Of a DNA stretch of 64,000 bases, positions 24,113-46,876 are shown piece after piece. Made by a program: the position numbers and the translations under genes. Below the pieces are notes generated by a model that searched no databases, was not told where the DNA came from, and worked only from the letters and a program-made list of their open reading frames with translations. The stretch lies in sequence record PV112478.1; one strand, 5' to 3'. The stretch's first letter is position 1, and every line of letters starts with the position of its first letter. This DNA is from Klebsiella phage LPKP23.

Positions 24113-24586
24113 TTAACCCTCGAACCGATAAACAATGATTTCAAGATTGGTATCCTTAAAAGCCCGCTCAATATTTTGGCGGACCAATTCCCAATCGCCA
24201 CCGGCCAGCCCGCAACCGATTAAAGGAAAACCAACCTTTAACGGCTTCTCTTCCTTTTTGAGAATCGATGCCATTATCTTCATTGCCAGATACTGTGCGC
24301 TATAATGCGTTTTATATCCTGGATCTGAATGGTCGTGGTGAAATTGGCCACAAAGATTGAAGCCCCATTGACCCTCTTTTTTGGCGGCGGTTAATTTCCC
24401 CAATCTGTTTTTGACAGGGCGTTTGTCGGCAAAGTAAGACTCGGCTATCCAGGGAAAAGCTTCGAAGATCTTAACGGCGATACCGCTCTTTGCAATCCCA
24501 AAACAATTTACTTGGTGGGCAATGACGTCGACTTCCTTATTAAAGAAAGCTTCAATCAAATCCCCTTTAATTTCGGTATAGGTCAT
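24113..24586 (-). CDS. Macro-domain protein, TARG1/DarG type (ADP-ribosyl hydrolase family)
   Basis: EIKGDLIEAF...DVIAHQVNCFGIAKSGIAVKIFEAF and LKVGFPLIGCGLAGGDWELV...LEIIVY align closely with human TARG1 / DarG macro motifs (GDLF..AHCIS.DC.MGAGIAV.FKKKF; MPRIGCGLDRL.WE.V...ITVY). Confidence 0.8.
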   Translation of the reverse strand: MTYTEIKGDLIEAFFNKEVDVIAHQVNCFGIAKSGIAVKIFEAFPWIAESYFADKRPVKNRLGKLTAAKKEGQWGFNLCGQFHHDHSDPGYKTHYSAQYLAMKIMASILKKEEKPLKVGFPLIGCGLAGGDWELVRQNIERAFKDTNLEIIVYRFEG

Positions 24587-24604
24587 TGCCCAAACTCTCC
24601 GTAT

Positions 24605-25219
24605 TTAATTGATGATAAACTTACAATCTTCGAGACGGTATTCTCGCCCACCAAAACAAAGTTTCTTAACATAGTCAGGACGAGGAAGATTAACGTTGTC
24701 CATGTGGGCATTATGGGAAACTAATGACTCGTTAATTATTTTTCCTTTGCTGTATTCGACGAGTTTTCCTGGGTGTTCTTGGGAGAAACCAAACCCCGAG
24801 AATTTCAACTTTACATGAGAATGAAAAGAGAGATTTCGCCAGCCTGGGAATTTCAACCCTTTAACGTGCGCGGCGATAAAACGGATCAAAGCGGTATAAA
24901 TTTTACCCAGTTCGCTCACTGTCAGTCGTTCTTCTTCATCGCCAAAACGGAAAATAATCTTGACGTCATGACCGTCAAGATTACGATGCCAGTCGATGAT
25001 AAAACGAGAATAATAACCGTACAGACCATTCTCGGCGACAGTGCGGTTGCGATAGGTTTGTGCCGTCTCAGAGTCGTAACGATAGGCACCTGGTTCCAAA
25101 GGCTGCCCGCGTCTGAAACCAATAAACTGTGCGAGCTGTACCGCTTGGATTAAAGTCAGGTGCACGGCGGTACCGAACTTGTTAGTAATGATAAAAAGAG
25201 GACTTGAAGACGTGTGCAT
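24605..25219 (-). CDS. Hypothetical protein (204 aa); weak 2H-phosphoesterase-like HxT motif
   Basis: There is an N-terminal AVHLTLIQAV (H-x-T-x) and a second His cluster SFHSHVKL about 113 aa later. This is suggestive only. Confidence 0.4.
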   Translation of the reverse strand: MHTSSSPLFIITNKFGTAVHLTLIQAVQLAQFIGFRRGQPLEPGAYRYDSETAQTYRNRTVAENGLYGYYSRFIIDWHRNLDGHDVKIIFRFGDEEERLTVSELGKIYTALIRFIAAHVKGLKFPGWRNLSFHSHVKLKFSGFGFSQEHPGKLVEYSKGKIINESLVSHNAHMDNVNLPRPDYVKKLCFGGREYRLEDCKFIIN

Positions 25220-25224
25220 TAGTT

Positions 25225-25824
25225 TTACTCCTGTAGTAGTTTGGCTATTTCAGTAACGAATTCGGAATGATCCTCTATTTTATCGCTACCGATCTCTGAA
25301 CGTCTTATTTGATCATCGACATATTTAGAGATTAAGACGTTGATTTTGCCAGCTGAGCTGGAGAGAAATTCTTTTGATTCGGCGTAGTCATTATTCCAAT
25401 GACGAATATAATACTCTGGAGAAAATCTTTCCGGCGTGTTGAAGTTTTGTAATTCGCCCTTTGCGAGTAACTTGAGGTTGTCTGAAAACAAAACATCAAT
25501 ACTGCGACCTGGGTAGTCATCCCTATAGCTAAATTGGACTGAAATCGAGAATGTATTGATAGCAGGGTGATCGCCACATCGTTCGATGACTTCCCTTTTC
25601 CAATCGGTTAAAGGTCCATTTTGTAAAGCAAACGTTAATACCTCCTCGGAAATAATCTCGTCGCCATAGTGCTCTCGGTTGAAATTTTCGATTTTATCCG
25701 TCAATGACTTGAATAAATATGTTTGATTTGAACGAATAAAAACCGGGTAATAATCATTAGTGATAAAGTCCCTTTCTTCCTGATTTAACGGCTCTTTAAG
25801 AAAACCGAGTTTTGTTCTGGACAT
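25225..25824 (-). CDS. Hypothetical protein (199 aa)
   Basis: ORF in the array. Confidence 0.45.
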   Translation of the reverse strand: MSRTKLGFLKEPLNQEERDFITNDYYPVFIRSNQTYLFKSLTDKIENFNREHYGDEIISEEVLTFALQNGPLTDWKREVIERCGDHPAINTFSISVQFSYRDDYPGRSIDVLFSDNLKLLAKGELQNFNTPERFSPEYYIRHWNNDYAESKEFLSSSAGKINVLISKYVDDQIRRSEIGSDKIEDHSEFVTEIAKLLQE

Positions 25825-25826
25825 TT

Positions 25827-26213
25827 TTACTCCTCATGAAATGGGTTATAATCAAAAGCAATAATTGTTTTATGTTCTCCTTGATTCTCTTTCGGATCCC
25901 ACGCCCTAACAGAAAATTTTATCGTATCCTCTGATGATCCCTCAATAAGTTTCTTCAAATCCGAAGAAGGTTTTATTTTGACATAAATCCCATCGGTTTG
26001 CCTATAAACGTCCATTACTATTCCAGCGTATTTACTTTCATCAATAGTTAACCTCCTCGCGACCATGGCTTCATCGCCCATTAACCGAGAAATGTTTGGC
26101 GGACTTATTTCACCAATAACTTTTTTCCGCATTTTTTCTAGTTGGTAGATAATTTCTTCTTCACTAAATCCATGAGTATCGACTATTTTAACGGTAAACA
26201 TTTTATTCCTCAA
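25827..26213 (-). CDS. Hypothetical protein (128 aa)
   Basis: ORF in the array. Confidence 0.4.
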   Translation of the reverse strand: MRNKMFTVKIVDTHGFSEEEIIYQLEKMRKKVIGEISPPNISRLMGDEAMVARRLTIDESKYAGIVMDVYRQTDGIYVKIKPSSDLKKLIEGSSEDTIKFSVRAWDPKENQGEHKTIIAFDYNPFHEE

Positions 26214-45013: not shown

Positions 45014-45640
45014 TCAATATAAGTTTTCGGAATAAAGTTCGTTGTTAATAATGATAACGTTGGGACGTGTGGCGTTAATTTGTCCGGCGTGTTTCGCAAT
45101 GACAAACGCGTCTTCTCGATTCCAATAACGATCCCATTGATCGATAAACCCTTGTCCGCTACCGTGCGGGAAACTAACGGGTTCTTCACCTGCCTTTGCC
45201 CGGAGGCGTTTGATCTCATCGCCGAGGATATGCTGAAGAAGCGAACCATGGCGCGAAGAAGGAATGACCAAGGGCTCTTCCTCTTTTAACCCCAGCGCTT
45301 CTCCGAGTCTTTCGTTCGGTTTCACTGTCCCCCAGATATTCGCCGCTGAAACGATACGAACCTGAACAAAGATACCCGGTGACGGCTCGTGTACGCAAAT
45401 AGCCGGGAGGGTCGCTCTTTGTTCTTCAGTGAGTACTTCGTCATCAGCGTAGCCTTCCTCTTTACGGAAATGAGATTCGGCTAATTGACACGACGCGAGG
45501 ATATCCATGGCCAATTTGCGAGCAGAGTCGATATCAAACTCGTACTGACCGCTCTTTAACAGAATAACCTTATCATCGCGAATGTCGTAATCGCGGATAT
45601 CTACTCGACTGTAGTCACCTTCATGAATCATTTTAGCCAT
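45014..45640 (-). CDS. Hypothetical protein (208 aa)
   Basis: ORF in the array. Confidence 0.45.
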   Translation of the reverse strand: MAKMIHEGDYSRVDIRDYDIRDDKVILLKSGQYEFDIDSARKLAMDILASCQLAESHFRKEEGYADDEVLTEEQRATLPAICVHEPSPGIFVQVRIVSAANIWGTVKPNERLGEALGLKEEEPLVIPSSRHGSLLQHILGDEIKRLRAKAGEEPVSFPHGSGQGFIDQWDRYWNREDAFVIAKHAGQINATRPNVIIINNELYSENLY

Positions 45641-45923
45641 TAAGATTCTTCCTCAAGGAAAGTTTCTGACCCAGTTTGAGGGTGCGGATCGGAAGTTCGA
45701 TTGATCCACACGCATTGGCGATAATGGTTCCTGTCGGTGTTCCAACCACCGCAGTGAATTCATCGGGATGTTTCTCAATCAACCCGATGCTGGCGGAGAA
45801 CAGATCTTCATCGCGCGCGAGCAGATGTAAATCAGCTTCACTTACGATGTCGCCGATGTAAGGATAATTTGGATTGCGGTCATAGGCGACAGTTGGAGAC
45901 TGCTTGACTTTCTTTGCCGACAT
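45633..45923 (-). CDS. Hypothetical protein (96 aa)
   Basis: 8-nt overlap with the downstream gene. Confidence 0.4.
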   Translation of the reverse strand: MSAKKVKQSPTVAYDRNPNYPYIGDIVSEADLHLLARDEDLFSASIGLIEKHPDEFTAVVGTPTGTIIANACGSIELPIRTLKLGQKLSLRKNLNG

Positions 45924-46351
45924 TATTCCTTCCCTCCGGAGATAACCGAAAATGGATTTGGTTTCTTAGTTTCTTTTGCTGGTTCAGCGGGTTCGTCAGA
46001 ACGCCCGTCAGCAGTGATGAGTTTTTGCGGGAGTTGAATCATCTGTTCCGGGTTATCAGGGTTAAACATCTGAATGACGGACCCCCACGGGAAAGTGTCT
46101 GAGGCGAGTTTACCCCCGAAACGCCCTTCGAAGAACAACCCTTCGTCCAGTGAAGAAAGCTGACAGGAATGCGGAGAAACATTCAGTGTCAATACGTGAT
46201 ATCCCTGCATGTTAGGGACCGGTTTGACATATTGACGAAGAATGGGATTCACGGTGATTTCGGTACCAAAGACCGTGATGTAAATACGGCTGCCATTATC
46301 GATAAGCCAGCTATAACCTGCATCAAACAACGCTTTATTTAAAGAAGACAT
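45923..46351 (-). CDS. Hypothetical protein (142 aa)
   Basis: First gene after promoter-like element P7. Confidence 0.4.
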   Translation of the reverse strand: MSSLNKALFDAGYSWLIDNGSRIYITVFGTEITVNPILRQYVKPVPNMQGYHVLTLNVSPHSCQLSSLDEGLFFEGRFGGKLASDTFPWGSVIQMFNPDNPEQMIQLPQKLITADGRSDEPAEPAKETKKPNPFSVISGGKE

Positions 46352-46375
46352 GTGTTACTCCCGATTGTTATTTAA

Positions 46376-46408
46376 TTACCTTCACTCAGGTGATATAGAT
46401 TTTAAAAG
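46376..46408 (-). promoter_or_regulatory. Conserved promoter-like element copy 7 (overlaps the 3' end of the NADAR gene)
   Basis: On the plus strand it reads ttaccttcactcagGTGATATAGattttaaaag, near-identical over 35 bp to copy 2. Confidence 0.55.
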
Positions 46409-46876
46409 CCGTCGAGTTTCTTCCCAAAACTCCACTAACCATTCTCCGCTTTTAGGCGTAACAACTTTAACGTCGTCTTCCCAGACACGCGCCCCTTTCT
46501 CCATTCGCCAATTACCGAAGACGTAGTAATGGGTAAAAGGTAGGGTTGAATTGACTAACGCTTGGTATTGGTGTTTGTAAGTATTCAGTTTCGCCAGATT
46601 AGCAGCTTTGATAATCGAGAGGAAATCAGGATGATGAACCACTTCCAATTTCTTCCCAAATGCTTTCGCCTCGTTACCGTACAAGCCTCTGAGGTATTGG
46701 TGTTTAAAACCGGTTTTTGCGTAATACCAAAACCCTTCCATACTTTCAAAGTTTCCGTACTCAGGGTGAATGAAAGGTGTCTTTGGAAAGTGAGAGAGAA
46801 AGAACCCGAGACGGTTCTTGGACTTAGAGTAAATGTTGATGTGGTCAATACCGTCATTGTTTGGGTTCAAAGTCAT
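46382..46876 (-). CDS. NADAR-domain (YbiA/DUF1768-like) protein
   Basis: NRLGFFLSHFPKTPF...YGNFESMEGFWYYAKT resembles the NADAR core (GFLSNF...F.S.EHYFQAQK). Moderate match only. Confidence 0.5.
   Translation of the reverse strand: MTLNPNNDGIDHINIYSKSKNRLGFFLSHFPKTPFIHPEYGNFESMEGFWYYAKTGFKHQYLRGLYGNEAKAFGKKLEVVHHPDFLSIIKAANLAKLNTYKHQYQALVNSTLPFTHYYVFGNWRMEKGARVWEDDVKVVTPKSGEWLVEFWEETRRLLKSISPE

Follow-up and report, generated by a model that had tools for sequence, protein, structure and literature searches.

Do the genes for nicotinamide adenine dinucleotide (NAD) and ADP-ribose chemistry that lie within some 23 kb of the genome of Klebsiella phage LPKP23 make up a single anti-defense locus, and what would they do for the phage? 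We addressed this question in a 64,000-nucleotide stretch of sequence record PV112478.1, referred to in its entirety as the window, in which a sequence-only reading had recognized six such genes: two macrodomain proteins (Macro 1 and Macro 2), the RNA 2'-phosphotransferase Tpt1/KptA, a NADAR-like protein, a NadR-like enzyme, and the transporter PnuC. All six open reading frames (ORFs) are present, all on the minus strand between positions 24113 and 46876, and all six identities, including the two weak ones, are backed by profile, structure-model, and homology evidence. On balance, the span is probably part of the accessory arm of a nucleus-forming Klebsiella jumbo phage of ~300 kb, and carries three independent NAD/ADP-ribose modules rather than an operon. 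The reading of these modules as anti-DarT and NAD-rebuilding is plausible, and we infer the activities and defense targets discussed below from gene identities, folds, catalytic residues, orthology, and organization. Profile searches support the assignments in part, with matches to PTS_2-RNA, NMNAT/AAA_28, and PnuC, sub-threshold matches to Macro and Macro_2, and none to PF08719 (NADAR).

The 22.8 kb span is 97–97.6% identical (93% coverage) to four Klebsiella jumbo phages of ~300 kb (KpZh_1, KpZh_LPS_45, KpSz_1, and vB_kp_MJ359, hereafter MJ359), ~94.5–94.9% identical to five further records (KpLz-2_45, twice, and relatives), and ~78% identical to FBKp24 and Centimanus. MJ359, our annotated relative, has a gene for the nuclear-shell protein chimallin (Pfam PF25677, 2.8e-21), together with genes for a PhuZ-like tubulin and split multisubunit RNA polymerases, and the lineage is therefore a nucleus-forming chimallivirus. 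All credible genes from ~2 kb to 48 kb of the window are on the minus strand, and thus the common strand of the six genes, while correctly read, is uninformative because the whole arm is transcribed one way. The GC content is flat over the span (0.41–0.48), there are no tRNA genes in the window, and 30 other ORFs in 23.3–46.4 kb have no Pfam match. Two ORFs of the window (199 and 128 amino acids (aa); 25225–26213, minus strand), located after the one at 24605–25219, are missing from the 97%-identical MJ359. Furthermore, the NADAR-like protein is 100% identical to its copy in KpLz-2_45, though the span as a whole is nearer to KpZh_1 and MJ359. Taking these indels and this identity together, the accessory arm is mosaic.

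The proposal that the six genes form one locus does not survive an examination of their organization. Five strong intergenic hairpins (three listed in Table 1, and two, at 34755–34728 and 30767–30746, that bound the seven-gene Tpt1 cluster) break the span up into five or more putative transcription units, where we note that the hairpin scan is a consensus match only, returning 27 sites versus 19.7 expected. NadR, an inserted ORF, and PnuC share one putative unit, and Macro 2, Macro 1, and the NADAR-like gene each lie in other, separate putative units. The modules also occur independently of each other in the phages Miami and RAY, and a single operon or "locus" is thus rejected. When clustering is assessed in the coordinates of the 97%-identical MJ359, six of its nine NAD/ADP-ribose genes fall within 22 kb, which corresponds to p ~0.001 against a uniform genome and to p ~0.05 when placement is limited to the ~96 kb accessory-gene arm, which holds nearly all such genes. 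Clustering within the arm is thus marginal. Both this marginal clustering and the separate units speak for a reading in which these genes are general auxiliary metabolism, with NAD salvage serving the phage's own NAD use, hydrolases clearing by-products, and co-location reflecting nothing but accessory-gene packing, and survey work finds NAD-synthesis genes and NAD/ADP-ribose domains to be frequent in large phages irrespective of host defenses. We nevertheless consider this explanation very unlikely, as four of the six genes have orthologues or family members with a proven anti-defense phenotype (NARP3, AdfM, and AdfN, as discussed below).

Turning to the individual modules, the NadR-like enzyme and PnuC probably constitute an NAD-rebuilding module of the NARP3 type, as suggested by their close orthology to a tested system. 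NARP3 (Bas30_86/87 of Escherichia phage TrudiRoth, or Bas30, published in August 2026) takes up nicotinamide riboside and turns it into NAD, and in the face of Sir2-HerA and DSR1 its two proteins bring back both NAD and the plating of phage (PMC13464706). The NadR-like enzyme is 62% identical to Bas30_86, the crystal structure of which is also its top PDB match (9x6f, E 8.8e-144), and PnuC, which was correctly recognized, is 48% identical to Bas30_87 and scores 121.9 bits against TIGR01528 (cutoff 42). The motifs GKFAPLTLGH, ISATMIR, and GVESSGKSS are visible in the NadR-like enzyme, and both its nicotinamide mononucleotide (NMN) adenylyltransferase and its kinase domain are there, as had been proposed. 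The enzyme is not, however, the full-length NadR that it had been taken for: it covers positions 65–407 of the 411-position NadR model NF005988, so the helix-turn-helix (HTH) domain is absent.

The likeness to NARP3 thus extends to the same two proteins, with NadR upstream of PnuC and NadR without the HTH domain. In contrast to the adjacent two-gene cassette of Bas30, the pair is here interrupted by a 156-aa ORF, the NadR-like enzyme has ~45 extra C-terminal residues without counterpart in its closest relative Bas30_86, and the host genome is that of a jumbo chimallivirus rather than of a T5-like phage, with NAMPT and Prs in relatives. The spacing between the two genes varies, with one ORF here, two in MJ359 (the extra one of 133 aa), and none in Bas30 or Klebsiella phage Miami. 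The two genes have the same orientation, and our consensus scan finds no terminator-like hairpin between them. Directly downstream of PnuC, in the same unit, lies the gene for a 141-aa membrane-anchored protein (39882–40307, minus strand; labeled "protease" in MJ359), and in phage Miami an SPFH-domain membrane protein is encoded two genes upstream of the NadR–PnuC pair. A recurring membrane partner of this pair is possible.

In such a NARP3-type module, PnuC would import nicotinamide riboside, the NadR-like enzyme would convert it first to NMN and then to NAD+, and the rebuilt NAD would refill the pool drained by Sir2-HerA, DSR, and TIR systems. Outside the window, MJ359 also encodes phosphoribosyl pyrophosphate (PRPP) synthetase and NAMPT (kpMJ359_330/331, 683–3300 of the respective MJ359 stretch), beside DHFR and ~0.3–3.5 kb to the left of window position 1. 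NMN can thus be made in this lineage from nicotinamide as well as from nicotinamide riboside, and in these relatives the two enzymes may feed the same adenylyltransferase from nicotinamide.

Macro 1 had been assigned to the TARG1/DarG type, which holds for its family relationships but not for its catalytic residues. The protein contains the motifs quoted for this assignment (GDLI, AHQVNCFGIAKSGIAVKI, and LIGCGLAGGDWELV). It scores below threshold against Pfam Macro (E 5.7e-4, 20.3 bits; cutoff 22), and this Pfam family is assigned to many of its 154 database homologues. The nearest solved structures, from a phmmer search of the PDB, are TARG1/OARD1 (4e-6), SCO6735, BT1257, and DarG (9e-5). The PADLOC DarG model matches Macro 1 at 7.7e-12 (T4 Tk.4 is weaker, at 1.3e-9), and the NCBIfam model antitoxin_DarG at 1.3e-11 through its macro portion alone (44 bits; cutoff 250). 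Only positions 9–144 of the 329-position DarG model are matched, and by both the PADLOC and NCBIfam searches the C-terminal DarT-binding domain is absent. A Pfam scan of the ORFs in the region found no DarT-like gene among the neighbors. By BLASTP, T4 Tk.4 is 29% identical to Macro 1 over 164 columns (E 3e-14), and Macro 1 belongs to phrog_335 (1.2e-42). Its family is found by tblastn in 2,810 of 50,697 phage records, including T4 (gene tk.4). We note that the MJ359 annotation labels this protein "phosphatase".

At the residue level, Asn27 of Macro 1 aligns with N22 of DarG and N23 of the PhiKZ protein, and is asparagine in 44 of 45 aligned sequences. A MAFFT alignment places K84 of TARG1, K78 of PhiKZ gp104, and a lysine of kpMJ359_103, a third macrodomain of this lineage that lies outside the window (25293–25736 of its MJ359 stretch), in one column, in which Macro 1, T4 Tk.4, and BT1257 have no lysine. 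The same alignment gives no conserved lysine at the catalytic position across the Tk.4-like family. In pairwise alignment, Gln81 of Macro 1 occupies the position of DarG K80 and TARG1 K84, and TARG1 D125 is replaced by alanine. The Tk.4 family as a whole has neither this lysine nor this aspartate. These substitutions count against a DarG-like removal of DNA adducts by Macro 1, and the TARG1 mechanism (K84/D125) is rejected for this protein, as both residues are replaced. With the lysine lost and the asparagine kept, the alignments thus place Macro 1, judged by its sequence, as a Tk.4-type member of the DarG/TARG1 clade, and not as a canonical DarG macrodomain.

Two members of this clade have known phage phenotypes. 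Of the T4 genes, only tk.4 is required on a DarTG2 host, where a clean knockout was sensitized, and it has been named adfM (bioRxiv 10.1101/2025.11.20.689424), and the DarG2-like macrodomain gp104 of the chimallivirus PhiKZ, which was independently named AdfM, removes DarT2 adducts in vitro (PMC13309987). T4 Tk.4 and Macro 1 are both stand-alone proteins of ~155 aa, 29% identical over their full length, with the conserved asparagine, an N-L-x-x-Q strand that replaces the catalytic lysine, and DarG-model matches of ~1e-9 to 1e-12. Their relationship is nevertheless distant, and the lineage of Macro 1 additionally has a PhiKZ-type AdfM. Macro 1 has the macro fold and the N22/N23-equivalent asparagine in common with PhiKZ gp104 and the bacterial DarG2 macrodomains, and PhiKZ and the present phage are both chimalliviruses. 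However, the identity of Macro 1 to gp104, the sequence of which was translated from a published gene fragment, amounts to just 22% (E 7e-4), its K78/K80 lysine is missing, and, unlike in bacterial DarG2, there is no C-terminal domain for DarT binding. In this lineage, the true orthologue of gp104 is instead kpMJ359_103, which is 36% identical to gp104 (E 9e-23), keeps the lysine in a T-K-D motif, matches the PADLOC DarG model at 1.7e-37 and Pfam Macro above threshold, and has no counterpart in the window.

The NADAR-like protein was rightly recognized as such, despite the lack of a PF08719 match. Its AlphaFold2 (AF2) model (predicted local distance difference test, pLDDT, 96.2) has the NADAR (YbiA-like) fold, and the profile of its family, built from an alignment of 28 homologues, matches T4 gp30.3 in hhalign with 94.5% probability (E 8e-8). 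Against the PDB, the same profile ranks a NADAR structure first, with an E of only 0.18, and in a search of viral models (BFVD) the nearest hits are unnamed phage proteins of the same family, followed by named giant-virus NADARs (~1e-3). E47 and K54 align with E36 and K43 of T4 gp30.3 and with PDB entry 8bau, this catalytic Glu/Lys pair being E43/K50 in PnNADAR, and E47 is found in 27 of the 28 family members. Lys71 and Lys75 occupy the positions of K75 and R79, which bind phosphate in the Phytophthora enzyme. His116, which is present in 25 of 28 members, lies one column from T4 His123 in a MAFFT alignment based on sequence only.

In T4, gp30.3 has been identified as AdfN, which removes guanine-linked ADP-ribose and counters DarTG1, and which is weakened by mutation of E36/K43 (PMC11825919). 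The NADAR-like protein resembles gp30.3 and other phage NADARs (PMC11825919, PMC11125620, PMC11543638) in its fold, in its LSNF-like and x-E-G-F motifs, in having a glutamate followed seven residues later by a lysine, in being a stand-alone protein of ~160 aa, and possibly in a conserved histidine at, or one residue off, the phage-NADAR histidine. It differs from them in being too divergent for PF08719 or for phmmer against the PDB, in its C-terminal half (LPFTHYY strand), in a lysine that is not conserved in the family, and in a family distribution outside the T4-like phages. A total of 515 phage records, from jumbo, Vi1-like, and Vibrio phages, contain this family, and among the matches listed nearly all members are annotated as "hypothetical" and occasionally as something unrelated.

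On the basis of these distant homologies to T4 proteins and of the active-site residues, we regard the chances as about even that Macro 1 and the NADAR-like protein form a module for the reversal of DarT2 and DarT1 base adducts. The Tk.4/AdfM-type Macro 1 would clear thymine adducts left by DarT2, and the gp30.3/AdfN-type NADAR-like protein would clear guanine adducts left by DarT1, each acting as a glycohydrolase resembling an orphan antitoxin.

A number of observations, beyond the substituted residues of Macro 1, weigh against this proposal. The lineage has a much closer DarG-like macrodomain in kpMJ359_103, and Macro 1 may therefore have another function. Pfam, including PF08719, gives nothing for the NADAR-like protein even at an E of 10, the PADLOC and NCBIfam models do not recognize it, phmmer against the PDB gives no significant NADAR match, and PHROG returns families of unknown function only. 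Only 15 of the 28 family members have Lys or Arg at the position of Lys54. Furthermore, in one study T4 gp30.3 gave no rescue from DarT1 outside infection (PMC11125620), and, as the phage nucleus shields the DNA, DNA glycohydrolases in the cytoplasm would be of little use unless they were imported.

Some of these observations would fit a role in which the main substrates of the two macrodomains and of the NADAR-like protein are small molecules derived from ADP-ribose (such as cyclic ADP-ribose isomer defense signals or toxic ADP-ribose phosphates), and not ADP-ribosylated DNA, which would be left to the PhiKZ-type AdfM. Roles of this kind have been proposed for phage macro and NADAR domains (PMC9503650, PMC7824862), and are in line with the presence in the lineage of a separate, much closer DarG-like macrodomain, with the loss of the DarG lysine in Macro 1, and with the similarity of Macro 2 to a small-molecule phosphatase. 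In addition, one homologue of the NADAR-like protein (P0007) has an N-terminal DUF4326, which is a fusion partner of NADAR and macro domains in a published survey (PMC9503650) that ties such fusions to small-molecule processing, and a 293-aa protein of phage RAY with a NADAR-like domain is labeled "DprA-like" (KU886224.1, 113656–114012). However, the only tested family members, T4 Tk.4 and T4 gp30.3, have DNA adducts as their targets, in vivo or in vitro, and we found no demonstration in the literature of defense-signal degradation by a phage macro or NADAR protein. We therefore consider a predominant action on small molecules unlikely, and retain the reversal of base adducts as the preferred role of this module.

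The third module, comprising Tpt1, an HD-superfamily enzyme, and Macro 2, is proposed tentatively, by analogy with the yeast tRNA-splicing pathway and because of published proposals for jumbo phages (PMC7824862). The description of Tpt1 as near-canonical is well founded: its Pfam score is 148.7 bits (cutoff 26), it matches PDB entry 7kw8 at 1.5e-40, and when LRHRP, IRAVQGHS, and SRQFVHL are aligned with 7kw8 and 8tfz, the complete Arg-His-Arg-Arg tetrad is seen to be present. Against the NCBIfam equivalog models it reaches 1.3e-58 yet stays under the cutoffs (197.9 vs 239), as expected for a diverged phage copy. It thus shares the full catalytic tetrad with the bacterial Tpt1/KptA enzymes. Tpt1 homologues are rare, occurring in 97 phage records, mostly (among the matches listed) of Erwinia and Dickeya jumbo phages.

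Two genes upstream of Tpt1 in the same seven-gene cluster (Table 1), the HD gene belongs to phrog_16069 ("phosphohydrolase", 3.2e-25), and its product is a candidate phosphoesterase for RNA ends or ADP-ribose phosphates. Pfam gives nothing for the five other genes of the cluster, and PHROG gives nothing for the two ORFs that flank Tpt1 (31133–31732 and 32231–32755). The latter (174 aa, minus strand), the ends of which overlap the HD gene and Tpt1, is effectively lineage-restricted, because a search of 1.84 billion representative proteins yields just 5 relatives and it matches no family. In the surveyed jumbo-phage network (PMC7824862, PMC9503650), as here, Tpt1 is found with macro, NADAR, and NAD-synthesis genes, and KptA with HD, 2H, or macro partners has been proposed to serve jumbo-phage RNA repair (PMC7824862). 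The present case differs in having an HD-type neighbor and in having neither a 2H phosphoesterase nor an RNA ligase in the window or in the annotation of the relative.

The second macro-like protein, Macro 2, is likewise confirmed through its similarity to Macro_2 and yeast YMR087W and its N-x6-GG-x-D motif. Its match to Pfam Macro_2 (PF14519) is sub-threshold and limited to residues 19–57 (5.4e-5, 23.1 bits; cutoff 27), and that to YMR087W (PDB 1njr, 1.3e-4) is partial, and several relatives that are 42–70% identical to it carry a precomputed PF14519 match. The AF2 model has a pLDDT of 94.9. The invariant block TPGNSFGIMDGGFD, common to 24 homologues, holds the signature N40-x6-G47-G48-F49-D50, and the closest protein is YMR087W, an ADP-ribose-1''-phosphatase. 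Macro 2 has the PGNSxG..GGFD motif in common with YMR087W (1njr) and Poa1p, and differs from YMR087W in its identity of 22%, its length (198 vs 284 aa), and its phage context. Its homologues are found in 44 phage records only. In MJ359 and FBKp24, this protein is labeled "tail protein". We also observe that the unit of three genes that ends in Macro 2 is bracketed by the only two paralogs that the region has among its 48 ORFs (28729–29148 and 30309–30722, both on the minus strand; 31% identity, E 6e-10), neither of which has a Pfam match.

In the proposed pathway, Tpt1 would strip 2'-phosphates from RNA by transferring them to NAD+, and Macro 2, perhaps together with the HD enzyme, would dispose of the ADP-ribose 1''-2''-cyclic phosphate and ADP-ribose 1''-phosphate. 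Several findings speak against such a pathway, which has neither a ligase partner nor a conserved context. The annotation of the complete MJ359 genome, which lists a polynucleotide kinase and a DHH protein, contains no RNA ligase, 2H phosphoesterase, or Nudix partner, and a Pfam scan of the 59 window ORFs found none of these three. In Erwinia phage RAY, the neighbors of Tpt1 are unrelated to those here and the HD gene is not conserved, and our literature search found no experimental role for a phage Tpt1. Finally, a general coupling of Tpt1 and Macro_2, as in yeast tRNA splicing, is unsupported, as the records with homologues of the two overlap only in this clade and one metagenomic phage (60 of 97 Tpt1 records, and 44 of 44 Macro 2 records).

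Alternatively, Tpt1 could be an offensive or cap-writing enzyme that ADP-ribosylates RNA or DNA of the host or the phage at 5'-phosphate ends, with a MacroD-like Macro 2 as the eraser. Tpt1/KptA does ADP-ribosylate 5'-phosphorylated RNA and DNA in vitro, and MacroD-type macrodomains and TARG1 reverse this modification (PMC11833690), which, together with the N-x6-GGxD motif of Macro 2 and the lack of an annotated RNA ligase in MJ359, is consistent with this alternative. We find it improbable nonetheless, given that Tpt1 and Macro 2 lie in separate putative transcription units, that they seldom co-occur in other phages among the matches listed, and that our literature search found no in vivo capping role for Tpt1 in bacteria or phages. 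Our preference thus stays, tentatively, with the removal of RNA 2'-phosphates.

Table 1. Coordinates of the genes and other features discussed in the text (window positions).
Feature	Position	Strand	Description
Macro 1	24113–24586	−	Stand-alone macrodomain, 157 aa, T4 Tk.4/AdfM type, DarG/TARG1/BT1257-like clade
Terminator-like hairpin	27007–27033	−	11-bp stem, intergenic; between the thymidylate-synthase unit and the unit ending with Macro 1
Terminator-like hairpin	29173–29188	−	Directly 3' of Macro 2; 12-bp hairpin at the same spot on the other strand
Macro 2	29200–29796	−	198 aa, macrodomain of the Macro_2/yeast YMR087W type
Seven-gene cluster with HD gene and Tpt1	30774–34643	−	Overlapping start and stop codons, consecutive overlaps of 11–58 nt
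Tpt1/KptA RNA 2'-phosphotransferase	31675–32250	−	NAD-dependent, ADP-ribosyltransferase (ART) fold; Pfam PTS_2-RNA 2.4e-43
HD-superfamily phosphohydrolase	32727–33455	−	Pfam PDEase_I 2e-4 and HD 5.4e-3, both sub-threshold
Terminator-like hairpin	39310–39333	−	Closes the unit of NadR, ORF, PnuC, and two ORFs; 10-bp stem, then T run; intergenic
PnuC nicotinamide riboside transporter (NARP3 component)	40339–41028	−	Pfam NMN_transporter 3.1e-43
Spacer ORF	41032–41502	−	156 aa, between NadR and PnuC, no Pfam match
NadR-like NMN adenylyltransferase/nicotinamide riboside kinase (NARP3 component)	41524–42738	−	Pfam CTP_transf_like and AAA_28
NADAR-like protein	46382–46876	−	164 aa, divergent NADAR fold, phage gp30.3/AdfN-like

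As the lineage has both a phage nucleus and two different AdfM-type macrodomains, a division of its ADP-ribose enzymes by compartment may also be considered. The PhiKZ-type AdfM would then be imported into the nucleus, and the Tk.4-type macrodomain, the NADAR-like protein, the Macro_2-type protein, and the Tpt1–HD cluster of the window would be cytoplasmic, where they would protect RNA (from base ADP-ribosylation, 2'-phosphates, or ADP-ribose caps) or destroy signals derived from ADP-ribose. We rate this division as unlikely; if true, a phage Tpt1 would for the first time be given a role in vivo, and the Tk.4- and gp30.3-like enzymes would gain a new substrate class.

Two other genes of the arm deserve mention in their own right. 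The thymidylate synthase (27350–28729, minus strand) has 459 aa, versus ~265–290 aa for a typical enzyme, and matches Pfam in two stretches, with residues 2–202 spanning profile positions 1–138 only, so that it carries large insertions. The gene at 2077–2802 (minus strand) encodes a 241-aa protein with a C-terminal Cro/C1-type HTH domain (Pfam 3.5e-9), labeled "CII-like regulator" in MJ359, which is unusual for the arm of a strictly lytic chimallivirus.

With respect to novelty, the sequence-only reading had held that this combination is not a standard described anti-defense locus. This claim fails, because NARP3, AdfN, and AdfM are published and the network of KptA, macro, NADAR, and NAD-synthesis genes has been surveyed (PMC9503650, PMC7824862), with macro, NADAR, and NAD-synthesis genes co-occurring statistically in large phages. 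All elements thus have published counterparts, namely NARP3, AdfM of both the T4 and the PhiKZ type, AdfN, and KptA with macro or HD partners, and no new kind of system is revealed. What is new is modest: the NARP3 cassette is interrupted, two AdfM types and a NADAR protein occur together in one chimallivirus lineage, curated models overlook a large NADAR-like family, and there is a phage Tpt1 cluster. The current labels of the NADAR-like family (mostly "hypothetical" among the matches listed) and of Macro 2 ("tail protein") also point to an annotation gap, and those of Macro 1 ("phosphatase" in MJ359) and of the RAY protein ("DprA-like") are likewise misleading.

The significance of these observations lies in that one lineage stacks nearly all known NAD/ADP-ribose countermeasures, comprising NARP3, NAMPT with Prs, two AdfM types, an AdfN-like NADAR, Tpt1, and a macrodomain resembling ADP-ribose phosphatases. 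This makes the lineage a test bed for asking whether such modules are redundant, compartment-specific, or synergistic, and of use when Klebsiella phages for therapy are to be selected or engineered for resistance to DarTG and NAD-depleting defenses.

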